64,000 bases of DNA from Candidatus Daviesbacteria bacterium (GCA_016176405.1 JACOXG010000012.1:2217-66216), one strand, 5' to 3'; positions 32,895-47,231 are shown, counted from the stretch's first letter. The notes: a model not told the origin generated them from the sequence alone. Numbers and translations are program-made.

Positions 32895-33017
32895 CTATAG
32901 GATCTTAAGAGGATAATTCTCTACCCTATCTTTATAACTTATGATGTATGGATACATCCAAACAAGAAGCTATTTTGGGGTATTGACATTCGGTAAATAT
33001 ATGGTTATAACACTTGT

Positions 33018-34887: not shown

Positions 34888-35742
34888 ATGGCACAGCACT
34901 CATTTGGTCCTAAAAATTTTGGTTCCCAACCCAGCCAGTCTTCCAGTGGAGATTTCTCAAGTAGTGAAGCAGAACTTGCCAAAAGAGAGGGAATTTTAGA
35001 GGAAAGAGAAAGGCAAATTTCAGAAAAACAAAAGCTAGTTGATGAAAAGTTGGAACAACTGGAAAAGACAAGAAAAGATTTAGTTGCAAAATTAGAAAAG
35101 TCTGCCAAGATGTCTTCTGATGATGCAGGTAAGATTCTTTTAGAACAAGTAGAAAAAGATTTAGCAGTTGAAATATCTAAAAAGATTACAGAGGCAGAAG
35201 AGGAGATAAAAGTTACTGTAGCTGAGAAAAGTAAGGAAATATTGGCAGATGCAATAGTACACGGATTTACAGACTATATTTCAGAATTTACCACCTCCAG
35301 AATAAATTTACCTGATGAAGAAGTGAAAGGGAGAATTATTGGTAAAGAAGGTAGAAATATTAGGACATTTGAACAAGCCACTGGGGTGGATGTCATTATG
35401 GATGATGAAATTCCCAACAGTTTAATTTTATCATCTTTTGATTCTGTCAGAAGAGAGATTGCCAAAGTTTCTTTGGAAAGACTTATGCTTGATGGTAGGA
35501 TTCAGCCACAAAGAATTGAGGAAATTGTTAAAAAAACCGAGGAAGATTTTGAAAAATTGATGCTGGAAGCAGGAGAAAAACTTTGTCGGGATGCAGGAGT
35601 GTTTAATCTGCCGGCAGAATTGGTTCAGATTTTAGGCAGATTCAAATATAGATTTTCCTTTGGGCAAAACTTAATTCAACATACACTGGAGGAAACCAGA
35701 ATTGGAGTGGCTTTAGCAAAAAATGATTGGAGCAGATGCTAA
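34888..35742 (+). CDS. rny: ribonuclease Y, N-terminal fragment (KH domain), interrupted by a frameshift
   Basis: GKEGRNIRTFEQATGVDVIMDD (KH)...GRFKYRFSFGQNLIQHTLEETRIGVALAK, then a stop. The continuation is in the +1 frame at the A6 tract (35718-35723). Confidence 0.75.
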   Translation: MAQHSFGPKNFGSQPSQSSSGDFSSSEAELAKREGILEERERQISEKQKLVDEKLEQLEKTRKDLVAKLEKSAKMSSDDAGKILLEQVEKDLAVEISKKITEAEEEIKVTVAEKSKEILADAIVHGFTDYISEFTTSRINLPDEEVKGRIIGKEGRNIRTFEQATGVDVIMDDEIPNSLILSSFDSVRREIAKVSLERLMLDGRIQPQRIEEIVKKTEEDFEKLMLEAGEKLCRDAGVFNLPAELVQILGRFKYRFSFGQNLIQHTLEETRIGVALAKNDWSRC

Positions 35743-36235
35743 TATTGTTCGTTTAGGGTGTTTATTACATGATGTTGGTAAAGTGGTCACTGAAGGTGAT
35801 GAGGGCACACATGTAGAAAAGGGTGTGCAAATTGCCAAAAAATTTAAGATGCCGGAGGAGGTTGTTAATTGTATTGCCGAACATCATGAAGATAAACCAT
35901 TCTCTTCTGTTGAGTCAGTTTTAGTATATGTGGCAGATGCTATTTCCGGTGGCAGACCTGGAGCCAGACATGAAAATGTGGAGGATTACATAAAGCGGTT
36001 GGATGACATAGAAAAAATTGCCACCTCTTTTGAGGGAGTGGATAGGGCTTTTGCAGTTCAAGCCGGTAGAGAAGTTAGAGTGATAGTGACACCTGAGAGA
36101 ATCTCTGATGATGAGTTGCCAAAATTAGTTCATGATATTGGGGAGCGGATTTCTAAAGAAGTGATGGTACCGGGAGCTGTTAAAATTACAGCGGTCAGAG
36201 AAACCAGAGCCACAGAGACAGTCATGAGCCAGTAA
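35723..36235 (+). CDS. rny: ribonuclease Y, C-terminal fragment (HD domain)
   Basis: LLHDVGKVVTEGDEGTHVEKGVQIAKKFKMPEEVVNCIAEHHED...VADAISGGRPGARHE...FAVQAGREVRVIV matches the RNase Y HD domain. Confidence 0.75.
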   Translation: MIGADANIVRLGCLLHDVGKVVTEGDEGTHVEKGVQIAKKFKMPEEVVNCIAEHHEDKPFSSVESVLVYVADAISGGRPGARHENVEDYIKRLDDIEKIATSFEGVDRAFAVQAGREVRVIVTPERISDDELPKLVHDIGERISKEVMVPGAVKITAVRETRATETVMSQ

Positions 36236-36598: not shown

Positions 36599-36850
36599 AT
36601 GAGCAAAAAAGCTTTTATAATTATTTTAATTTTAAGTGTGGTGGTAACATATGGAGCATCATTGCTAGATGCATTGATGGGTAACACTCTGCTTGCAGGT
36701 GAGTCTGGAATTCCATTTAAATACAGCAGGAGCACTTTATTTGGAAGGGGAAGTATAAACTATACGATGATGTTACTAAATATAGCATTCTGGTCTGTGG
36801 TTATTTGGGGAGCTTGGAAAGTTTTACAGAAGGTTATATCTAGAAGATAA
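36599..36850 (+). CDS. small hypothetical membrane protein (2 TM)
   Basis: 83-aa ORF with two hydrophobic helices. No recognisable family. Confidence 0.35.
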   Translation: MSKKAFIIILILSVVVTYGASLLDALMGNTLLAGESGIPFKYSRSTLFGRGSINYTMMLLNIAFWSVVIWGAWKVLQKVISRR

Positions 36851-39433
36851 TTAGTTACTATCACTTTGATCATGAGGAACAATAACTTCTTGGGTAGATA
36901 GCGAGGTATTTCCTGCTAAATCTGTAACTAATATTTTTATTATATATTTTCTTCCATCTTTATCCCCTCCTTTTCTTGATGCCTCTAACTGAATAATCTG
37001 ATTAATATTTGTTTGATTTAAAATTGTAACCTCAGGTTCTACTAAGTTATATTCATCATCAACAATAATTTTTGTTAAATATGGATTCTCATCATTAATA
37101 TTACCGGTTACATTAACATCAACCAGCTTCCCATTAGGTGGCCAGATAGTTTTAGGAGTTACATCAAATGAGATATCCGGAGGAGTATGGTCATAATTTG
37201 CATTTCCTTCTAAAATACTGAAATTATTTACATTAAAATCAATTATTCCATCTCCATTTTCATCAACCTCTATAATTGGTGATTGAGTTGATCCCGTATC
37301 AAAAGTTGTTTCTGCTTTTGTATCATTTGTTAAAGGCACCTCTTTATATAAAATAGTTTGAGTAATTTCATCATTTTCATATTTTCTAATTTTAAAATCA
37401 AAACTACCCTCTCCGGTTGCATTAAATTTAATAGTATAAACACCATCCTCTGGAAGAAAGGTAAATTTGGCATCATCTAAAGTATTATAAGAACTGCCAG
37501 GAATATTGGTTTCAAAATGTCCATCTTCTGTTGGCCCAGTATGATTACCACCTTCATCATATACATGAAGATTCACTGGTGAATGGACAGATAAAATATG
37601 GCCTCTCAATTTGCAGGGTTGATTGTAAGTTCCCTCAGGAAGTTGATTATTCCCATCCAAAATATTTTTAGTCAAATTTAAAGCCGGACCATCAGATACT
37701 AATCCACCATGCTCAGAATTCGCATAATATATTTTGGCATCGCCTAAAAGTGACAAGTTCTTGTGAGTATCAACAAGTGAAGCACTCAATAATGGTACAG
37801 TTCCATCTCCATTGATATTAATTTCATCTTTATAAATCCTATTGCCATTAAAACTACTAACAGTTTTTTCAACAATTTGACCTAAAGTTTCAATACCACA
37901 CCCTGCAATAACAGTAATATCCACCCCATTTGTACTTAAAAGAGAGTTATCCAAATTATGAAAGGTTTCACTAGGCATAAAAAGAGAAGTATTATGCCCG
38001 AAATTTGTAAGAAGACTTTTAATTTCACCATAATTTAAAGATCCTTTTTCAGTTCTGTAAGGATAGGGATGAAAGTTATCTTCATCTGAATAGAAATTAA
38101 AATATTCTTGGGATGGAGCTAATTCATAACCACCAATCATATTCTGAATAACATCCTTCACTTCAGAATTAGCTAGGCCAATACAGACTGGTAGGTTTTT
38201 GAATTCAGGTTTAGTAAAACATCCTCCATATCTCAAGAATTTTAAAAATTCTACTGCCCCTAAATGAGGAGTTCCTAAGGTGAATAATTTTCTGACATTT
38301 TGGGCTCTATCTATATCTGCTATATAATTTCTGGCAACTAGTCCTCCCATGGAATGAGAGACTATATCTACCTTTTCTGCTCCTGTTTGAGATTTTATTT
38401 CACTGATCTTTTGGTCTAAAAGAGAAGCTGTTAAAGAAATATCTTTTCTCCAGTCATATGGAAAGACGAATAAATCTTGGTTTAAGCTATAACCATTGGT
38501 AGTAAAAAAATCTATCATTGGCTGATATGCCCCCGCATATAAACTTCCAGTAGTTTCAATATTTGCTTCCGAATTTATTCCATCTGTTTTCATCCTTAAC
38601 ACATCAAAATAATCATCATCCCCCGGGTTTCCTGCTTCTCCTTCATTAACCCAAACTTTTTCGTCCTTTGCATATGCCCTGGTATATACTCCACCATGCC
38701 CATCCTCTTTGGACCAAAAAGTATCTTCTGCAACTTTAAACTCTGATCCACCTATTCCCGGAATTAAAATTAAGGGGGTTTTTAAAGATTTTACCCTAAC
38801 ATAATCCACATTAAATTTAGTCCAATCACCTGCAGGCACTGTTACATAATTACCCATCCAAATATATTTAACTTTAGTTTCAGTATCCTCTGAGGTAAAA
38901 ACTAAAACATCATCTAAATAAACCAAATATTTTAACCCCCTCCTATCTACTTTAAAGACATGACTATCTAAATTAATAGGGATAGTAAAAATAATTTGGC
39001 CAAAATATTCCAGCCTCATATTAGTTAAAAACAGGTCCTGCCAGACATTAATCCGAATCAGCTCCGGAGCAGTGGGGTCTTGGATGGGATCTTTATCAGT
39101 TAAAGCTATCCCCGTACCATAACCTGTGATTTGGGTATATTGAAATTTAATATCTGTTACCCAATCACCATTTGGAAAAACTTGACTGTTGGAAATGACA
39201 AAGGGGAATTTATCAGCAGTTACCTGAGATAGAATTAAATTTCCTCCAGTTTCTTGTATGGTAGTTATCCCAGAAGAATTATTTGGATAAACATTCCATT
39301 TATTAGTATCCAAAGTATTTGCCGCTCTTTCTTGATTAAATTCCTCCTGAAAATAGTATTCCTCTGCAAAGATAGGACTATTGAAAGATAGAAAAACTAT
39401 AGACCATGTAAGTGTAGAAATGATTAATCTCAT
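36851..39433 (-). CDS. large secreted multidomain protein with a class-2 lipase-like alpha/beta-hydrolase core (nucleophile elbow SHSMGG)
   Basis: Signal peptide MRLIISTLTWSIVFLSFNSPIFA. LILIPGIGGSEF...VDIVSHSMGGLVARNY...LGTPHLGA resembles the Bacillus LipA AHSMGG family. N-terminal lectin/jelly-roll-like domain and C-terminal Ig-like beta domains. Start placed at the internal Met (39433). The upstream Met at 39481 would abut the divergent gene. Confidence 0.55.
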   Translation of the reverse strand: MRLIISTLTWSIVFLSFNSPIFAEEYYFQEEFNQERAANTLDTNKWNVYPNNSSGITTIQETGGNLILSQVTADKFPFVISNSQVFPNGDWVTDIKFQYTQITGYGTGIALTDKDPIQDPTAPELIRINVWQDLFLTNMRLEYFGQIIFTIPINLDSHVFKVDRRGLKYLVYLDDVLVFTSEDTETKVKYIWMGNYVTVPAGDWTKFNVDYVRVKSLKTPLILIPGIGGSEFKVAEDTFWSKEDGHGGVYTRAYAKDEKVWVNEGEAGNPGDDDYFDVLRMKTDGINSEANIETTGSLYAGAYQPMIDFFTTNGYSLNQDLFVFPYDWRKDISLTASLLDQKISEIKSQTGAEKVDIVSHSMGGLVARNYIADIDRAQNVRKLFTLGTPHLGAVEFLKFLRYGGCFTKPEFKNLPVCIGLANSEVKDVIQNMIGGYELAPSQEYFNFYSDEDNFHPYPYRTEKGSLNYGEIKSLLTNFGHNTSLFMPSETFHNLDNSLLSTNGVDITVIAGCGIETLGQIVEKTVSSFNGNRIYKDEININGDGTVPLLSASLVDTHKNLSLLGDAKIYYANSEHGGLVSDGPALNLTKNILDGNNQLPEGTYNQPCKLRGHILSVHSPVNLHVYDEGGNHTGPTEDGHFETNIPGSSYNTLDDAKFTFLPEDGVYTIKFNATGEGSFDFKIRKYENDEITQTILYKEVPLTNDTKAETTFDTGSTQSPIIEVDENGDGIIDFNVNNFSILEGNANYDHTPPDISFDVTPKTIWPPNGKLVDVNVTGNINDENPYLTKIIVDDEYNLVEPEVTILNQTNINQIIQLEASRKGGDKDGRKYIIKILVTDLAGNTSLSTQEVIVPHDQSDSN

Positions 39434-39503
39434 AGTGATCACGTAAGTGCTTATATTAGAATGACATTTAGATAAAGTCAAGTTGATGTGTTACTATTTC
39501 CCT

Positions 39504-40484
39504 ATGGCTGTTATCTTAGTTAAAAATTTAAAAAAATATTACCGGGTTAATCAAAAAGAGCCAGGGCTCTGGGGATCAATCAAATCTTTAATTGCCAGAA
39601 AATATTACGATGTCAAAGCAGTTAATGGGATTTCTTTTGAAATTAAAGAGGGGGAACTGGTGGGTTTTATTGGACCAAATGGGGCTGGTAAAACTACCAC
39701 CTTAAAAGTTTTATCAGGACTTCTCTATCCCACATCAGGTAGTGTGAGAGTTTTAGGATATGAACCATTTAAGCGTCAAAGTATTCTTCAAAAACAATTT
39801 TCTCTAATTATGGGACAAAAAAATCAACTCTGGTGGGATTTACCGCCTTTGGAAAGTTTTCTACTTAATAAAGAAATCTATGAAATAGAAGATAGTCAGT
39901 TTAAAAAAAAAGTCAATGAACTTTCTGAAATGTTGGAAGTTTCGGATATTTTAAAAATCCAAGTGAGAAAATTATCTTTAGGACAAAGAATGAAATGTGA
40001 ATTGATTGCTGCTTTGCTTCACTCACCAAAGGTTTTATTTTTGGATGAACCAACCATTGGACTGGATGTGGTGGCTCAAAAAACTATGAGGGATTTTATC
40101 AAAGAATATAATAAAAAATTTAAGGCCACCATAATTTTGACTTCTCATTATATGGGTGATGTTAAAGAATTGTGTAAAAGAGTGATTATCATCAATCAGG
40201 GAAAGATTGTCTATGATGGACTTTTGGAAAAAATAGTTAACAGGTTTGCTCCTTTTAAAGTCATCAGTATTGATTTTGAAAAAATGGCAGAAAAAGAGGA
40301 ATTGGCAGAATTTGGTAAATTAGATGAGTTTGATGGGATTCATGCCAAGATTCAAGTTAATAAAGATGAAGTTCCTGATAAGACTTCCAGATTGCTGTCT
40401 AAGTTTGAGGTGGCAGATCTAACTATAGAAGATCCCTCGATTGAAAGTATTATTAGAGAAGTTTTTAGTAATGGGAGGGTGTGA
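39504..40484 (+). CDS. ABC transporter ATP-binding protein
   Basis: GPNGAGKTT (Walker A), LSLGQRMK (signature), LFLDEPTIGLD (Walker B), H-loop. Alternative start at 39483/39486. Confidence 0.88.
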   Translation: MAVILVKNLKKYYRVNQKEPGLWGSIKSLIARKYYDVKAVNGISFEIKEGELVGFIGPNGAGKTTTLKVLSGLLYPTSGSVRVLGYEPFKRQSILQKQFSLIMGQKNQLWWDLPPLESFLLNKEIYEIEDSQFKKKVNELSEMLEVSDILKIQVRKLSLGQRMKCELIAALLHSPKVLFLDEPTIGLDVVAQKTMRDFIKEYNKKFKATIILTSHYMGDVKELCKRVIIINQGKIVYDGLLEKIVNRFAPFKVISIDFEKMAEKEELAEFGKLDEFDGIHAKIQVNKDEVPDKTSRLLSKFEVADLTIEDPSIESIIREVFSNGRV

Positions 40485-40658
40485 TAATATTGTATCCATA
40501 CATAGGATTAATAGCTTATAACCGCTTCGCCAAAACCCCGCTTCTTTAGAGCGGGGATGAAGGCGAAGTAGGTTACACACTTTTGCGATTAATGAGCTGC
40601 GAAGCGGATGTAAACTTAAGATGAAAGAAAACCGCGGCTTTTCAAGCCGCGGAAGTTT

Positions 40659-40925
40659 ATGAGTAAACCAACCAGAGATAAAAATATTCAAATACCTGCT
40701 GACATTTTAAAAGATCTCTTGACTGTTTCAGAATGGCGCATGTTAAAAAATCGTTTCCAAATAATGAATCTTTTAGAGGAAGGGTTACCAATTAGGAAGG
40801 TGGCGGAAAAAGTCAGGGTGGGAACTGATACTGTAGTCAGAGTTGCCAGAATGGTCAAAACTTCTCCCAAAGTCAAAAGAATTAAAACTTCAACTCCCTG
40901 GATCTTTGGTAAATCCGATGAGTAG
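40659..40925 (+). CDS. YerC/YecD (TrpR-like) family HTH protein embedded in the ABC transporter operon
   Basis: LTVSEWRMLKNRFQIMNLLEEGLPIRKVAEKVRVGTDTVVRVARMV. Same family as the regulator at 4851-5300. Confidence 0.55.
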   Translation: MSKPTRDKNIQIPADILKDLLTVSEWRMLKNRFQIMNLLEEGLPIRKVAEKVRVGTDTVVRVARMVKTSPKVKRIKTSTPWIFGKSDE

Positions 40926-41715
40926 TAAATATTGGGCTGTTTTTAAAATTTCTTGGGAAAATGGTTTGGTCTATAGATTAAATTTTACTCTTTGGAGGGT
41001 CAGATCAGTACTTCAACTTTTATTGGTTTATTTTATCTGGTGGACAGTGTTTCAAACTCAGGATCAGATTTTTAACTATACTAAAGTTTCTATTTTAACT
41101 TATGTGATGGTGGCTTCTTTAATTAGGGCCATTATCTTATCATCAAGAGCAGTTGACGTTTCAGCTCAAATCAATGATGGTTCAATTGTTAACTTTCTGG
41201 TTAAACCGTTAGGCTTTATTAAATATTATTTTGCTAGAGATTTAGCTGATAAATTACTCAATATTTCTTTTGTAATTTTTGAGATCATACTACTGGTTAT
41301 AATTCTCAAACCACCCCTACTCATACAGCAAAATTTTGAAATTTTGCTATTCTTTACTTTAGCAACTATCTTAGGTTTATTTTTATATTTTGCCATGGCT
41401 TTTTGTATTGGCATGCTGGCCTTTTGGGTGGAGAATGCCTGGGGTCCGCTATTTTTGGTGACGATCATTTTAGAGGGATTTGGTGGGGGACTTTTTCCAA
41501 TCGATATTTTACCCAAAAATATTTATGATTATGTCATGTTGACTCCCTTCCCCTATTTAATTTATTTTCCCGCTAAATTATATTTGGGAAACTTACCTAC
41601 CATGGAAATTTTTAAAGGTTTCATCATTTTAATTAGTTGGGTTTTTATTGGTTGGTATTTAATGATGGCCATATTACAGCAAGGATTAAAAAGGTATACA
41701 GCCTTTGGGTATTAG
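40918..41715 (+). CDS. ABC-2 type transporter permease
   Basis: Six hydrophobic helices. The start overlaps the stop of the HTH gene (gATGagTAG). Confidence 0.7.
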   Translation: MSSKYWAVFKISWENGLVYRLNFTLWRVRSVLQLLLVYFIWWTVFQTQDQIFNYTKVSILTYVMVASLIRAIILSSRAVDVSAQINDGSIVNFLVKPLGFIKYYFARDLADKLLNISFVIFEIILLVIILKPPLLIQQNFEILLFFTLATILGLFLYFAMAFCIGMLAFWVENAWGPLFLVTIILEGFGGGLFPIDILPKNIYDYVMLTPFPYLIYFPAKLYLGNLPTMEIFKGFIILISWVFIGWYLMMAILQQGLKRYTAFGY

Positions 41716-41717
41716 AA

Positions 41718-42500
41718 ATGAAAAAATATTTTTTAGTCTGGTTAAAATTTGCCATCTTAGGTTTTCAAACTCAACTAGCTTTGCCTTCTGCCCTATTTAT
41801 TTTTCTTTTGGGAAAATTGTTAAGATTTTCAGTTTTCACCTTTTTTATAATTATTTTGGTTGATAAAACAAAGGCTCTAGCAGGCTATAATTTGGATCAA
41901 ACAATTTTTTTCTTTTTAAGTTTTAATTTAATAGATACTGTTTCTCAGCTTTTATTTAGAGAGGTTTATCGTTTTAGACAGGCCGTGGTCTTGGGAAATT
42001 TTGACTTTTACTTAATTAAACCAATCCATCCACTTTTTAGGGCTTTGATGGGAGGACCTGATTTAATTGATTTTATAACATTAATTCCTTTAGTTTTGGC
42101 AACTATTGTTTTCATGAATCGTCTCGAAATAAATAATTTGTTGAGTATCATGATTTATATTTTGCTTTTGATATCTGGCTTTATTATTGCCCTAGCATTT
42201 CATATCTTGGTTTTAGCACTAGCTGTTATCACCACAGAAATTGATCATGCTATTATGATGTATCGAGATGTGGTAGGAATGGGAAGATTTCCAATCGATA
42301 TTTATAGAGAACCCTTAAGGGGGTTTTTAACTTTTATTATTCCGGTTGGGATCATGATGAGTTTTCCTACAAAAGCCATCTTGGGTTTATTGTCTTGGCA
42401 GGCCATTGTTTATGCTTTGATTTTTTCTCTAATAATGCTCTATTTATCATTTAAAGTTTGGGATTATTCATTAAAACAATATTCATCTGCCTCTTCTTAA
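41718..42500 (+). CDS. ABC-2 type transporter permease (second subunit)
   Basis: Polytopic. The ATG lies 2 nt after the previous stop. The track start at 41637 overlaps the upstream permease. Confidence 0.7.
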   Translation: MKKYFLVWLKFAILGFQTQLALPSALFIFLLGKLLRFSVFTFFIIILVDKTKALAGYNLDQTIFFFLSFNLIDTVSQLLFREVYRFRQAVVLGNFDFYLIKPIHPLFRALMGGPDLIDFITLIPLVLATIVFMNRLEINNLLSIMIYILLLISGFIIALAFHILVLALAVITTEIDHAIMMYRDVVGMGRFPIDIYREPLRGFLTFIIPVGIMMSFPTKAILGLLSWQAIVYALIFSLIMLYLSFKVWDYSLKQYSSASS

Positions 42501-43708
42501 AAAGGATTTTTGGTAAAATTCGTTGCAAAGAAAAGATTGACAAATTGTTTAGGGATATGGATGGCAGTTAAGAATGGAAAAATAAAAATAAAACTTAGGA
42601 TAATTAAGATCACTAATGCTATGGCCAACTTTTTGGTTTGTCGATCTGACAAAGCTTTACTTAGCTGATAACCTAGGGAGAGTGCCAAAAAAGGGATCGA
42701 GGGAGCATAGTGGTATAAAAACATAATTCTGGGGGAGATAGACCAAGGCAGCCAAAAAATTAAAAATCCCAAAACAATAATGGTTAAATTTCCAGCCCTT
42801 TTCTTAGCTGCCTCCCAAAAAGTTAATAACAAACTGGCTGCTCCCATCCAAAAAAGTGCTGGATTTCCTGAAGCGAAAATGTTGGCTATGGTGTTTTCTC
42901 CATAATCAACGAAATACCAAACAGGTTTTAAATTAATAGGCCAAGACCACCAAGCTGAAGTATAATCATGAGTGGCTTTAAGTCCGGTATGATACCACCA
43001 CATTTGTTGTTGCACTTCAATAAATTGCAAGGGAGTATGACCCAATAAGAAAAATGGGATATAAGTTAACAAATAAATTATGGGTGCAACAATTACAAAA
43101 AAAGACAGTTTGATCAGTTGCTTATCTTTAAAGAGTAATACGGCATACATAGCAATTAGATAGATGGCTGCCCATTTACTAGAAATAGATAATCCAAAAA
43201 AAATTGCTGATATAAAAAATTTTTTATTTAAGAAAAATAATAGGCTTAACAGCATAAAAGTTATAAAATAAATATCATTCATGCCTATTCTTGATTGAAC
43301 AAAATTTAAGCCATCTAGAGAAAAAATAAAGCTACTTAGAAGTGAGATAAGTTGATTGTTAAAAAGCTTCATCCCAATAAGATAAATTAGATAAATTGAT
43401 AAAACCCCCAATAGAGCTCCGGGTAATCTCCAAGCCCAACCATCTTCTGAGCGAAATGTAAACATAGAAGAAGCCATGATCTCTTTAGCCAAGGGAGGGT
43501 GAGTCCATTCATAAGCTACTCCAGGTGGAGGAGTGGTCCAATATTCCCAAGCCTCTTTTGATCCATGAAGATATTCTTTGGCAGTGAAAGCATGATAAAC
43601 TTCATCGAAGATAAATTTGTTTGGGTAATCAATACGAAAAAGCCTTAGAAATAAAGCGAGAACCAAGATAGTAATTAATAGATATGTTGGTTTAATTTTT
43701 AGAGACAT
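42497..43708 (-). CDS. GT-C fold glycosyltransferase, PMT/GT39-like (dolichyl-phosphate-mannose protein mannosyltransferase family)
   Basis: N-terminal loop FDEVYHAFTA (DE motif of PMT/ArnT-type GT-C enzymes). About 11 TM helices. Confidence 0.65.
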   Translation of the reverse strand: MSLKIKPTYLLITILVLALFLRLFRIDYPNKFIFDEVYHAFTAKEYLHGSKEAWEYWTTPPPGVAYEWTHPPLAKEIMASSMFTFRSEDGWAWRLPGALLGVLSIYLIYLIGMKLFNNQLISLLSSFIFSLDGLNFVQSRIGMNDIYFITFMLLSLLFFLNKKFFISAIFFGLSISSKWAAIYLIAMYAVLLFKDKQLIKLSFFVIVAPIIYLLTYIPFFLLGHTPLQFIEVQQQMWWYHTGLKATHDYTSAWWSWPINLKPVWYFVDYGENTIANIFASGNPALFWMGAASLLLTFWEAAKKRAGNLTIIVLGFLIFWLPWSISPRIMFLYHYAPSIPFLALSLGYQLSKALSDRQTKKLAIALVILIILSFIFIFPFLTAIHIPKQFVNLFFATNFTKNPF

Positions 43709-44930
43709 CTTTATTCTTAATAATATAAAAAGTGATTATAACAAACAAAATGGTTGAAATAAGAGAGAGAATTTTGGTTTGAGCCTCTAATAGACTATAA
43801 AGAATTGCATTATATAAAATTTTTGCTGAATTTAAATAAAGCTCATTATAGTAAACATAGACGTGATAAAGATTTAAAAGATGAATAAGGTTTAAAACGA
43901 TCAAAGCTACTAAAAATATTTTGGATTTTATTTGTGGCAAACATAAAATGAGAAAAATTAAGGCGGGATATAGATATCTTTCATGAACACGGGTTGGTAA
44001 AAAGAAAAAACTTAAGGTAGCCAAAGCTGCCAGAGAATAAATAGATAATCCTTTATGCGTAAATAATACAATTAGCCAAAAAATTCCCAGTAAAATTAAA
44101 CCAAAGCTTTGGTATGAGAATGAAAACCATTGATCGCTATCGGAAATCCAAAACCCTACTATCCCCCAAAGATTATAAGCAAAAGCTGAAGTATAAGAAT
44201 AATCACTGATCATTTTTAAAATTAATTCCAAAATTCCCCTGATAGGAGTACTAACAAAAAAGGGCAAGGATAATAAAAAGACTATTAGGATAGTTGGTAA
44301 ACTAAGTTTTAGAAGATTAGTCACTGAAAATTTTTTTATTAAAATTAATACCACAACAGGTAAAATAGCGATTGCTTGAGGCTTTATTAAGAATGCTAAT
44401 CCCAAAAATATTGAAGATAAAATTGATCTCTTTTTATTTAAATAATAAATTGTCAATAACATAAATAAAGTTAATAAGCCGTCTATCTGTCCCCAGACAG
44501 CACTATTAAAAATAAAAGCGGGATTTAGTAACACTAAAGCGGCTGAAAATCTGGCTGTAAATATCGAATAATTTTTTCGCACTAAGCAGTAAATAAAGTA
44601 CCCAAGAATTATTTCGGAGAAAATTGCAGGGAGCTTTAGAATTAGATAGAAAATTTGATCAGGAAATTTAAGAAGGTTTTTTAGAAATCCTAAGATTTTT
44701 AAAATATATAAATATCCAGGAGTATAATTTGTCCATATTTGATCAGAGTAAAATTGAGAAAGTCCAACTTCATTTAACCTAATGGCCCAGGCAAACCAAG
44801 TGCCAATATCAAATTTAAAGCCAGGTAAAAAGGATAGATAGATACGGATAAAAAAACCTAGTAAAATTATAATTAAGAAAATGTTATCCAAATTAGTAAT
44901 TCCCTTTTTGATTTTTTCAATTACTTGCAT
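43692..44930 (-). CDS. GT-C fold membrane glycosyltransferase-like protein
   Basis: 412 aa, polytopic. FKFDIGTWFAWAIRLNE periplasmic loop. No closer family call possible. Confidence 0.5.
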   Translation of the reverse strand: MQVIEKIKKGITNLDNIFLIIILLGFFIRIYLSFLPGFKFDIGTWFAWAIRLNEVGLSQFYSDQIWTNYTPGYLYILKILGFLKNLLKFPDQIFYLILKLPAIFSEIILGYFIYCLVRKNYSIFTARFSAALVLLNPAFIFNSAVWGQIDGLLTLFMLLTIYYLNKKRSILSSIFLGLAFLIKPQAIAILPVVVLILIKKFSVTNLLKLSLPTILIVFLLSLPFFVSTPIRGILELILKMISDYSYTSAFAYNLWGIVGFWISDSDQWFSFSYQSFGLILLGIFWLIVLFTHKGLSIYSLAALATLSFFFLPTRVHERYLYPALIFLILCLPQIKSKIFLVALIVLNLIHLLNLYHVYVYYNELYLNSAKILYNAILYSLLEAQTKILSLISTILFVIITFYIIKNKDVSKN

Positions 44931-46047
44931 AGTTTATTTTTTGTCTTCACCAGGAGAGACTCACTATAACTATTTTACTAGATTATCAGATAGCATGGTT
45001 AAGGGAAGATTATATCTTACTGAAAACCCTCCTCATCTGAATGAATTAATACCAATTGGGGATAAGTATTTTGTAGTCTATCCGCCAATGCCCGCCATAT
45101 TAATGATCCCATTGGCTGCTATTTTGGATAATAATCAATTTCAAACTAGAGTCTCAATAATATTGGGGGCGCTTAATGGAGTTTTGGTATATTTACTTTT
45201 TTTAAAAATGGGTTTTTCTCAAAAAATTTCGATACTTATTACTATATTGTTTGCCTTTGGTACAAACCACTGGTATTTAGCATCTGTTGGATCAGCTTGG
45301 TTTATAGCTCACATAGTAGCTATTTTTTTTATGCTACTAGCTTTGCTGGAAACATTTGGTAAACAAAGATTATTTCTGATTGGATTTTTAATAGGTTGTG
45401 CATTTTGGGCTAGAAGTACTACCATTTTTACATTGCCATTTTTTTATATCATTTTGGGGAAACAGCTTTGGCCAATCAGTAAAAAAAATGTTTTAAAGTT
45501 TGTCTTATTAAATATGGGGATTGGGATTTGGATTCTAATAGATATTTGGTATAACTTTGTAAGATTTGGTAGCCTAAATCCCTTAATACCTTATCATTTG
45601 ATTCCTAATATAGATAGGGACCTTGTTTTTAAGGATGGATTTATGAGTATTAAATTTATCCCAAGACACATCGAGGCAGCATTTTTAAAGTTACCAATCT
45701 TTTCAGATCGCTTTCCTTATATTTTACCCTCCCTTTATAGCTTGGCTATTTGGTTTACTACGCCAGCCATATTTTATATTTTTAAAGCCAAAAAATCCTT
45801 ATTAGTCTTGGCATCATGGGCAGCCATTTCAACTACTTTTTTTGTCATCATGTTATGGGCAGGTGTTGGATACTCCCAGTATGGTTATAGATTTGTCCAG
45901 GATTTTATACCTTTTATATTAATCTTAATATCAATCGGAATTGGATCTAAACCTAATATAATGGCTTATTTATTAATAATTTTAAGTATTATTGTTAATT
46001 TATGGGGGATAGTGATGATTAATAAATTAAATACTTGGGTGATTTAA
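44881..46047 (+). CDS. GT-C fold membrane glycosyltransferase-like protein (paralog of 46056-47231)
   Basis: 388 aa, polytopic. GDKYFVVYPPMPAILMIPLAAI resembles DGKYFWPQGPFPSLILIPFQLIYG of the neighbouring gene. Confidence 0.5.
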   Translation: MLSKLVIPFLIFSITCIVYFLSSPGETHYNYFTRLSDSMVKGRLYLTENPPHLNELIPIGDKYFVVYPPMPAILMIPLAAILDNNQFQTRVSIILGALNGVLVYLLFLKMGFSQKISILITILFAFGTNHWYLASVGSAWFIAHIVAIFFMLLALLETFGKQRLFLIGFLIGCAFWARSTTIFTLPFFYIILGKQLWPISKKNVLKFVLLNMGIGIWILIDIWYNFVRFGSLNPLIPYHLIPNIDRDLVFKDGFMSIKFIPRHIEAAFLKLPIFSDRFPYILPSLYSLAIWFTTPAIFYIFKAKKSLLVLASWAAISTTFFVIMLWAGVGYSQYGYRFVQDFIPFILILISIGIGSKPNIMAYLLIILSIIVNLWGIVMINKLNTWVI

Positions 46048-46055
46048 AGCAATCC

Positions 46056-47231
46056 TTAATTTTTAAAGGTAAAAAATTTCCCTATTAATAAATATATATT
46101 CAGAAGAGAGCTTAAAATAATAAATATGATTTGATTTTGAGTGAGTCTCGGAGCCTTTAAACTCACCAAGAGCAACAAATACAGTATTGGCATCACATCG
46201 GATAAAAAACGGGGACCGAATTGGACCCAACCATTACTATAATAAGAGAGCAGAATTAACAGAGTCAGTAAAATTACTAACCAATAAAGTCTGATTATTA
46301 TTTTTTGGCTTTTAAGACTTTTAAATGCATATAAGAAAAAGGGAGCCACAATAAAAAAACTTAGGCCATATGGACTATATGTTAAAAAAGGATAAACTAA
46401 ATGGGTTGAATATCCTATGACCGGTTGTACAGAAATAAGAAAATAGTAATAAAAGTTAGAGGGGATATGTTGAATACTAAATACTCCGATATTTCTTAAT
46501 CCCGCTAAATAATCACCAACATTATTTGTAGCATAGCCGTTATCAAAAGGATTTTGAAAGCGGACCTGATTAAATATTAACAGTAAAAAAATTGACAAAA
46601 GTATGGGGTTTATAAAAAGTGTGATATTCATAAATCTGGAAGTATTATTATTTTTGGAATAGAAATAATAAATTATGGGTATAAAAATTAGACTGGCAGA
46701 AATTCTGGTGGCTATAATTGCCGCGAGTAATAATCCTAAAAATAGTGGTCTTTTTTTGCTTTCAAACTCCAGCAAAAGGGCAGTTAATAAAACCATGGTG
46801 ACAACATGAGCAAAATAGGAATAACAAGGTTCTACGATGATGCGGACTATTTGTGAGGCAAATAAAAAGACATATGTTAAAAAAATTGCACTTGATGGTT
46901 CAAAATTCTTTAGCCGAGCTAATTGATATAACAGTAGGCTAAGTATTATTACTAAAATTGGTTGCATGACAAATTGATCAAAATTAGGACCATAAATAAG
47001 CTGGAAAGGAATTAAAATAAGGGAGGGGAATGGTCCCTGGGGCCAAAAATATTTACCATCTTTATAAACTGTATCCCAATATGCTGAGATATCTAATTTG
47101 CCACCTATAAAGCTTTGAGCTTGTTGGGAAAATTGTTGACAATAATTTGAGGGCATATGAATATAGATTAAAATGGATAAAAAAATTACAGCCATGGGGA
47201 CAAATATTTTAAAAATCTTTAAAGAAATCAT
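46056..47231 (-). CDS. GT-C fold membrane glycosyltransferase-like protein
   Basis: 391 aa, polytopic. Paralogous to 44881-46047. Confidence 0.5.
   Translation of the reverse strand: MISLKIFKIFVPMAVIFLSILIYIHMPSNYCQQFSQQAQSFIGGKLDISAYWDTVYKDGKYFWPQGPFPSLILIPFQLIYGPNFDQFVMQPILVIILSLLLYQLARLKNFEPSSAIFLTYVFLFASQIVRIIVEPCYSYFAHVVTMVLLTALLLEFESKKRPLFLGLLLAAIIATRISASLIFIPIIYYFYSKNNNTSRFMNITLFINPILLSIFLLLIFNQVRFQNPFDNGYATNNVGDYLAGLRNIGVFSIQHIPSNFYYYFLISVQPVIGYSTHLVYPFLTYSPYGLSFFIVAPFFLYAFKSLKSQKIIIRLYWLVILLTLLILLSYYSNGWVQFGPRFLSDVMPILYLLLLVSLKAPRLTQNQIIFIILSSLLNIYLLIGKFFTFKN

Follow-up and report, generated by a model that had tools for sequence, protein, structure and literature searches.

A conserved trio of GT-C glycosyltransferases within a mosaic hupB-miaA locus of Candidatus Daviesbacteria

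Between hupB, which encodes HU, and miaA, the genome of a Candidatus Daviesbacteria bacterium carries a tightly packed set of genes for a secreted lipase-like hydrolase, an ATP-binding cassette (ABC) transporter with a TrpR-like regulator, and four polytopic membrane proteins. The stretch of DNA analysed here (the window: 64,000 nt, GCA_016176405.1 JACOXG010000012.1:2217-66216, to which all positions refer) was the subject of an earlier note, made from the sequence alone. That note rightly recognized a member of the Candidate Phyla Radiation (CPR), as well as nine genes that are all present, and it read these genes as one surface lipid or glycan remodelling system. Is this a single machine and, if not, which parts belong together and what do they do? 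CPR bacteria live attached to other cells and, to our knowledge, their surface chemistry is almost unknown. Comparison with relatives shows that the interval is a mosaic in a variable hupB-miaA slot and no single machine. What stays together is a trio of GT-C glycosyltransferases that probably glycosylates surface proteins or the cell wall. New here are this conserved three-GT-C module, in which a protein O-mannosyltransferase (PMT) homolog has a fusion partner, and a widespread GT-C family for which Pfam has no model.

The trio consists of the PMT-like protein and two further GT-C proteins that we call GT412 and GT388; the fourth membrane protein is called GT391. About 170 related loci were compared, all of them searched with the proteins of the window: 79 species-level genome loci around GT388 relatives, 80 metagenome loci around relatives of the lipase-like hydrolase, and individual contexts. 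Of 67 bacterial loci, 61 have all three genes: all 11 Daviesbacteria-type loci, 32 of 34 loci from other CPR bacteria in which the trio is linked to an LCP (LytR_cpsA_psr) ligase gene, and 18 of 22 loci from outside the CPR (Dadabacteria, Thermodesulfobacteriota and Ignavibacteriales). The linkage is seen across at least four gene orders and, since order and orientation differ among these groups, it is more than mere synteny. In Microgenomates the three-enzyme module is near-universal. The Daviesbacteria-type loci have the trio invariably between hupB and miaA (11/11), which does not fit its earlier description as accessory genes. A horizontally acquired island was considered for the trio and rejected, because it holds this one slot in every Daviesbacteria-type locus despite the lower GC content of the region (0.30-0.34 versus 0.36-0.40); the low value may more simply reflect that membrane proteins use AT-rich codons.

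In 23 loci GT412 and the PMT-like protein form a single open reading frame of 800-850 aa. GT412 is N-terminal in these fusions, an order that matches the window, where the GT412 gene lies upstream of the PMT-like gene and overlaps it by 17 nt. Fusion of a PMT homolog to a second GT-C protein is thus found in many lineages. Unlike the PMTs of yeast and Mycobacterium tuberculosis, the PMT-like protein is always paired or fused with a second, unrelated GT-C protein (GT412) and linked to a third (GT388); the fusion is reminiscent of the obligate dimers of eukaryotic PMTs. The strands of the four GT-C genes run -, -, +, - and so do not strictly alternate, as had been described. We take the functional core to be a GT412-PMT-like pair, predicted to be co-transcribed, plus the divergent GT388.

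Are the four membrane proteins really GT-C glycosyltransferases? They are: Pfam, profile matches in the PDB, fold and homology all bear out the original assignment, and profile searches did not place them outside the GT-C families, for instance among transporters. The PMT-like protein is the clearest case, with 53.3 bits to Pfam PMT (threshold 22.7) and 80.4 bits to PMT_4TMC (threshold 32.4). A profile of its family, built from 32 sequences, matches PMTs alone in the PDB (Pmt1, 6e-33; Pmt4; Pmt2). Invariant in these sequences are F34-D35-E36-V37-Y38, D145 and R327-I-M-F330, and the DE and R-x2-F motifs align with those of Pmt1. The Mycobacterium tuberculosis PMT (Rv1002c, MtPMT) has D74 and R441-x2-Y444 as essential residues, to which the invariant D35/E36 and R327-x2-F330 correspond (PMC12331936). 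The FDEVYHAF motif (aa 34-41, window 43586-43609), noticed before as a DE motif of the PMT/ArnT type, therefore belongs to a true homolog of the PMT/GT39 family. In common with Pmt1, Pmt2, Pmt4 and Rv1002c, the protein has the PMT and PMT_4TMC domains, a DE motif after the first transmembrane segment and R-x2-[Y/F] in the last outer loop. Like bacterial PMTs it has no MIR domain, but it is shorter than actinobacterial PMTs, which have about 520 aa. NCBI names it 'phospholipid carrier-dependent glycosyltransferase'. Judged by its sequence it is a family-level PMT homolog, not an equivalog. Such machinery had been thought unusual in bacteria; PMT-like genes are in fact common across the bacterial lineages sampled.

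GT412 scores 31.5 bits with Pfam PMT_2 (threshold 26.1), and its profile matches GPI mannosyltransferase I of the PIG-M type (5.6e-10) and ALG6 (1.9e-9). Its invariant residues are D41 and H316-E317-R318 (an HER motif). The GT388 profile has no sequence match in the PDB, and 4 of 44 family members match Pfam PMT_2, weakly. An AlphaFold2 (AF2) model built from the 44 homologs has a predicted local distance difference test score (pLDDT) of 95, and the top 26 PDB matches given for it by Foldseek are all GT-C proteins (Pmt4, PglB, ArnT, ALG12/9/3, PimE, GPI-MT-I and AftD). E55 in the first outer loop, R178, R228, R337 and D341 are invariant in GT388. At least 529 species-level genomes have relatives, with Dadabacteria, Thermodesulfobacteriota and Bathyarchaeota among them; in archaea they stand alone. 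GT388 and GT391 themselves have no Pfam match and match, weakly, the NCBIfam family of the putative glycosyltransferases LA_3751/LA_3752 of Leptospira (NF047440). All 44 aligned GT388 members do so (best E 3e-16), but at about 30-60 bits versus a cut-off of 200, which makes GT388 a distant sister family and not a member; the Leptospira family is itself uncharacterised.

GT391 and GT388 had been called close paralogs. They share just 26% identity (E 2e-10) and are distant ones. D53, an R, N-x2-R and R-x3-D of GT391 align with the invariant residues of GT388, D53 standing opposite E55, and this homology is the basis on which GT391 is assigned to GT-C. An acidic residue in the first extracytoplasmic loop is invariant in each of the trio families (D35/E36 in the PMT-like protein, D41 in GT412, E55 in GT388). 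Together the module and the GT388 family offer a defined target to glycobiologists interested in the CPR cell coat.

The divergent GT412 and GT388 genes overlap by 50 nt at their 5' ends (window 44881-44930). The GT388 of NCBI is a truncated 'hypothetical protein' of 350 aa, and the truncation avoids the overlap; the N-terminus that it drops is the conserved first transmembrane helix (Y19 and L35 invariant; pLDDT >90).

What would the trio do? From the observed families, folds, conserved residues, linkage, fusions and patterns of presence and absence we build a proposal for donor, acceptor, order of steps and complex. Our preferred reading, which we put forward tentatively, is stepwise protein O-glycosylation started by the PMT-like enzyme and extended by GT412, GT388 and GT391. 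A GT2 enzyme whose gene lies in another part of the genome would make polyprenyl-phosphate-sugars in the cytoplasm; once these had been flipped across the membrane, the PMT-like enzyme would transfer the first hexose to Ser/Thr of exported surface proteins. GT412 is probably in complex with the PMT-like enzyme, since other Microgenomates have the two as a single polypeptide. GT412 and GT388 would add further sugars, and GT391 would contribute an extra, strain-specific decorating step.

A protein acceptor is favoured because the PMT-like protein has all the sequence hallmarks of GT39 and because all characterised GT39/PMT_4TMC enzymes are, as is well established, protein O-mannosyltransferases (PMC12331936). 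As to the donor, two GT2 genes, a gene for a GtrA flippase and further GT-C genes flank the trio in all 22 non-CPR loci, which supports polyprenyl-phosphate-sugars as donors and action on the outer face. These clusters, with four or five GT-C genes including the trio, have the same set of genes as the three-component systems GtrABV, ArnC/ArnT and CsbB/YfhO (a GT2, a GtrA-type flippase and a GT-C). Trio loci differ from those systems in having several different GT-C proteins instead of one.

Several points weigh against protein O-glycosylation. Unlike the three-component systems, the 64-kb window has no GT2 or GtrA match, and the CPR loci, too, all lack one within 10 kb of the trio. With the NCBIfam equivalog model for protein O-mannosyltransferase (NF058602) the PMT-like protein scores 71.6 bits versus a cut-off of 800. 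No candidate acceptor protein was identified in this analysis. Finally, the LCP ligase gene adjoins the trio in 34 CPR loci, in three arrangements that include co-directional LCP-GT412-PMT-GT388 arrays, and this adjacency indicates a wall-linked polymer at least as much as proteins.

Could the trio, then, build or decorate a polyprenyl- or peptidoglycan-linked glycopolymer on the outer membrane face, which the LCP ligase would join to the wall? We consider this possible, if on the unlikely side. LCP-GT412-PMT operons occur in Levybacteria; in loci L053 and L074 the LCP, GT412, PMT and GT388 genes are all co-directional; and the wall genes MurJ and FemAB are common in the neighbourhood of LCP-linked trios. 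GT412 is also weakly similar to the MptA/B and GT87 families (GT87 19.8 bits, versus a threshold of 25). Such a route would be comparable to the way in which mycobacteria assemble arabinogalactan and lipomannan, by periplasmic GT-C steps (PimE, MptA/MptB, Emb/Aft) and with ligation of arabinogalactan by Lcp1; the trio would have in common with it the use of polyprenyl-phosphate-sugars by multiple GT-C enzymes, besides an LCP ligase nearby. On the other hand, the window and the non-CPR loci have no LCP gene, and the 11 Daviesbacteria-type loci have none within 10 kb; the invariance of the PMT catalytic residues and the protein acceptors of characterised GT39 enzymes also speak against a polymer. 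The literature yielded no paper connecting Patescibacteria with GT39.

The non-CPR GT-C clusters of Dadabacteria and Thermodesulfobacteriota (L019-L072, for example L036:1-19000) have other recurrent neighbours. They are flanked by a gene for a secreted FG-GAP/ASPIC protein in 19 loci, by a GMC oxidoreductase gene in 15 and by a gene for an Rce1-like CAAX protease in 21. These proteins may be substrates or partners of the cluster.

Does the trio work with the other genes of the slot? The lipase-like hydrolase, the ABC transporter and the regulator are optional and separately inherited, and the locus is therefore no integrated system. ABC genes are present without the lipase in three of the 11 Daviesbacteria-type genome loci (L002, L021 and L044) and with it in the metagenome locus L093. 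None of the 83 GT388-anchored loci has a relative of the lipase. The lipase occupies the HU-miaA slot in L093 and, with no ABC genes, in L085, L095 and L105; the contexts of the lipase loci sampled are mostly unrelated. Neither lipase nor ABC genes are found in L006, L012, L013, L043 and L064. The regulator occurs without ABC genes in ten loci (L007, L014, L022, L085, L095, L105 and L169-L172), and in L172 it stands alone, with housekeeping genes on both sides and GT-C, ABC and lipase genes absent from the surroundings. GT391 has an ortholog in L014 alone among the 83 anchored loci and is a rare, lineage-specific extra GT-C protein. Of the single envelope system first proposed, then, the consistent linkage of the trio stands, whereas the lipase, the ABC genes, the regulator and GT391 vary independently among relatives.

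That lipase, ABC-2 exporter, regulator and four GT-C proteins are nevertheless one surface lipid and glycan remodelling system seems improbable to us. In its favour, L093 repeats the order GT412, PMT, two permeases, TrpR-like gene, ATPase, lipase and small partner. In L085, L095 and L105 the HU-miaA slot houses lipase, TrpR-like and GT-C genes together, and in L095 and L105 the palindrome described below lies in the divergent intergenic region between the TrpR-like and lipase genes. Such sharing of a slot in several genomes tells against a pure mosaic, and some functional cross-talk is possible. But the distribution just given shows every combination of presence and absence, the lipase family (>1100 members) is mostly in unrelated contexts among the loci sampled, and the trio is kept in phyla that have no lipase, ABC genes or regulator. 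Tightly packed neighbourhoods in CPR genomes should not be taken for operon-like systems.

In other genomes the slot houses other polytopic proteins: DUF2079, DUF2298, PIG-V-like and unassigned ones with 9-13 transmembrane segments. The hupB-miaA interval is a hot spot at which polytopic GT-C-like genes, GT391 among them, come and go (L085, L095, L171, L172 and other Daviesbacteria loci), and in L172 the whole trio has been lost. The variable extra GT-C proteins suggest strain-level diversification of glycans, relevant to recognition by hosts and phages.

The transporter does belong to the ABC-2 family, as first called, but it is not an evident glycan exporter. Its permeases match PF06182 alone and not the Wzm-type PF01061, so that it is of the uncharacterised NatA/COG3694/COG4587 type and not of the Wzm/Wzt type. 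It is also missing from most loci with the GT-C trio. The ATPase matches TIGR01188 at 4e-63, below the cut-off, and no solved relative of permease B was found. Operons of this type have no known function (PMC6003355). With those of Firmicutes the window genes have in common one ATPase and two different PF06182 permeases; they differ in having the regulator gene between ATPase and permeases and no detected riboswitch. That this transporter replaces GtrA in these CPR genomes, flipping the polyprenyl-phosphate-sugar donor or a lipid-linked glycan, is very doubtful, for although GtrA is absent near the trio in CPR loci, the transporter lies directly beside PMT in four genomes and its permease family has no known substrate, it is found in about one in four Daviesbacteria loci, all 34 LCP-linked CPR loci lack it, its permeases are unlike the Wzm type, and the homologous Firmicutes operons are tied to ppGpp riboswitches and not to glycan genes (PMC6003355).

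The hydrolase (860 aa if MRLIIS is taken as the start) carries a Sec-type signal peptide, and its AF2 model (pLDDT 85) shows a jelly-roll lectin-fold domain (28-216), a core (220-600) and two beta-sandwich domains like those of immunoglobulins (Ig; 610-852), in agreement with the secreted protein with lectin-like and Ig-like domains described before. The class-2 lipase label that it had been given, from the SHSMGG nucleophile motif (present at aa 359-364, window 38342-38359), looks too narrow. Pfam LCAT scores 57.2 bits (2e-15; threshold 21), whereas Lipase_2 (PF01674) scores 25.4 (threshold 20.3) over aa 314-389 only, and the LipA matches in the PDB are limited to about 55-80 residues next to the nucleophile. 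Other alpha/beta-hydrolase families, PGAP1 among them, match as well. In Foldseek the top PDB matches of the core are lysosomal phospholipase A2 (LPLA2; 5e-16; template-modelling score 0.72, target-normalised, over about 410 residues) and LCAT (3e-13), and the enzyme is a predicted lipid hydrolase or acyltransferase. The catalytic triad S361 (in HSMGG), D543 and H575 is invariant in 41 sequences. Fold, Ser-Asp-His triad and a nucleophile in HSMGG are common to this enzyme and LCAT/PLA2G15 (PF02450); unlike these it is bacterial and Sec-exported, lies between a lectin-fold and two Ig-like domains, has an exchangeable N-terminal module and comes with a membrane partner of about 80 aa. The family is a large one of Microgenomates, with more than 1100 members, and relatives exchange the N-terminal module for DUF1080, RCC1 or a PQQ-propeller. 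That domain of the window protein gives Foldseek matches to the GH16/concanavalin-like fold. GH16 glycosidase activity was considered for it and rejected, because the ExDxxE motif is absent; conservation within the family is also lowest in this domain.

A homolog of the small partner abuts the 3' end of the hydrolase gene, on the opposite strand, in 56 of the 65 loci with room for it (L085-L168), the two stop codons lying anywhere from 71 nt overlapping to 17 nt apart. The partner has two transmembrane segments and invariant Y18, W65, W70 and K74; no such gene was found in about 1.5 Mb of GT388-anchored loci that have no hydrolase. It may serve as immunity factor, anchor or chaperone. One speculative reading, to which we attach low probability, is that the hydrolase family are lipid harvesters, which would cleave or transacylate phospholipids of a neighbour or host and feed lysolipids or fatty acids to a lipid-auxotrophic cell, the partner shielding or docking at the cell's own membrane. 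If that were true, the family would be a candidate for the still-missing route of lipid acquisition in CPR bacteria; the enzyme and its partner bear in any case on the lipid supply of lipid-auxotrophic CPR cells.

The regulator was correctly placed among TrpR/YerC-type helix-turn-helix proteins. It scores above the Pfam Trp_repressor threshold of 27 bits, and below the cut-off of the YerC/YecD family of NCBIfam (26.6 versus 42.2). Is it the transporter's own regulator, as had been thought? Its occurrence in L172 without transporter, GT-C or lipase genes argues otherwise, and so does a putative operator that is also found upstream of recA. This element is a 12-bp palindrome, TGTAT-SS-ATACA. It lies 11-13 nt upstream of the ATG of the TrpR-like gene in nine relatives and, with at most one mismatch, at the start of that gene in 12 of 15 loci. 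The window has it twice, the other exact copy (32945-32956) being 74 nt upstream of recA. The palindrome is upstream of recA in all ten regulator-containing loci for which there is sequence (among them L022, L044, L085, L095 and L169-L172), at 71-77 nt in nine, two of the copies having one mismatch; in four loci that lack the regulator but retain the same promoter it is absent (0/4). Exact sites number 15 in the first 2.48 Mb of locus DNA versus about 1 expected by chance. The correlation could be inflated by common descent of the genomes that have the regulator.

The palindrome resembles operators of the TrpR type, which have TGTA...TACA half-sites (PMC9413887). These patterns are read most simply as autoregulation of a TrpR-family factor whose predicted regulon includes recA, with the palindrome as candidate operator, and not as a regulator specific to the transporter. 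As in the amino-acid-responsive repressors TrpR and HisR (YerC), there is a Trp_repressor domain of about 90 aa and, suggestive of autoregulation, a TGTA/TACA palindrome at the regulator's own gene; the palindrome measures 12-14 bp versus 20 bp there, and the second conserved target is recA and not amino-acid genes. This regulator bears on the control of recombination in CPR cells. A LexA network has been reported for Patescibacteria, and regulation of recA by a TrpR-family factor, as suggested here, would be separate from it.

Two minor features of these genes can be added. In this genome only, a GC-rich insert of about 150 nt (window 40503-40658) separates the palindrome from the ATG of the regulator. 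Its RNA fold (-59.9 kcal/mol, z = -5.8) includes three strong hairpins; Rfam gave sub-threshold noise alone, and no other copy was seen in the window or the fetched loci. In a close relative (L002:1-723) recA has an intein with a LAGLIDADG endonuclease domain, which the recA of the window lacks.

The features of the locus are collected in Table 1. Upstream are a ribosomal protein operon, recA-recX-rny and hupB; downstream are miaA, a gene for an AI-2E-family permease and RNase P RNA. The start of permease A overlaps the stop of the regulator by 8 nt, the inferred starts of the ABC genes are the same as in the public annotation, and the starts of GT391 and miaA are 2 nt apart.

Table 1. Features of the hupB-miaA locus, with positions in the 64,000-nt window
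Feature	Position	Strand	Basis
Partner of the hydrolase, 83-aa membrane protein, two transmembrane segments	36599-36850	+	Homologs abut hydrolase 3' ends
Secreted LCAT/LPLA2-like alpha/beta hydrolase ("lipase"), 860 aa	36851-39433	-	Pfam LCAT, AF2, Foldseek
ABC ATPase, DrrA/NatA-like	39504-40484	+	Pfam ABC_tran 6e-27
Palindrome TGTATCCATACA, candidate operator of the TrpR-like protein	40491-40502	unstranded	Recurs at TrpR-like gene starts of relatives
TrpR/YerC(HisR)-family helix-turn-helix regulator, 88 aa	40659-40925	+	Pfam Trp_repressor 47.4 bits
ABC-2 permease A (PF06182)	40918-41715	+	Pfam ABC2_membrane_6 1.2e-17; NCBI 265 aa
ABC-2 permease B (PF06182)	41718-42500	+	Pfam ABC2_membrane_6 5.5e-36; NCBI 260 aa
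PMT-like GT-C glycosyltransferase, GT39 family, 403 aa	42497-43708	-	Pfam PMT and PMT_4TMC
GT412, PIG-M/ALG6-like GT-C glycosyltransferase	43692-44930	-	Pfam PMT_2, profile matches
GT388, GT-C family without Pfam model	44881-46047	+	AF2 model and Foldseek
GT391, distant GT388 paralog, extra GT-C	46056-47231	-	Homology to GT388

Rfam at gathering thresholds gave no match in the locus. A promoter and terminator scan of 36.2-47.6 kb gave counts no different from the shuffled expectation and was not used.

Some of the public records compared are oddly labelled. Many records of 'binchicken' metagenome-assembled genomes (L006, L007, L010, L011, L014, L021 and others) bear the title uncultured Gammaproteobacteria, uncultured Spirochaetia or uncultured Pseudomonadales. 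Those of them titled Gammaproteobacteria have synteny of the Daviesbacteria or Levybacteria type and 50-60% identity to the window. Such titles look unreliable. In the upstream flank of the window, RNase Y is split into two overlapping open reading frames, 34888-35742 (RNase_Y_N and KH) and 35723-36235 (HD), where relatives have a single gene of 441-450 aa; the split may reflect a frameshift, a mistake in assembly or a pseudogene.

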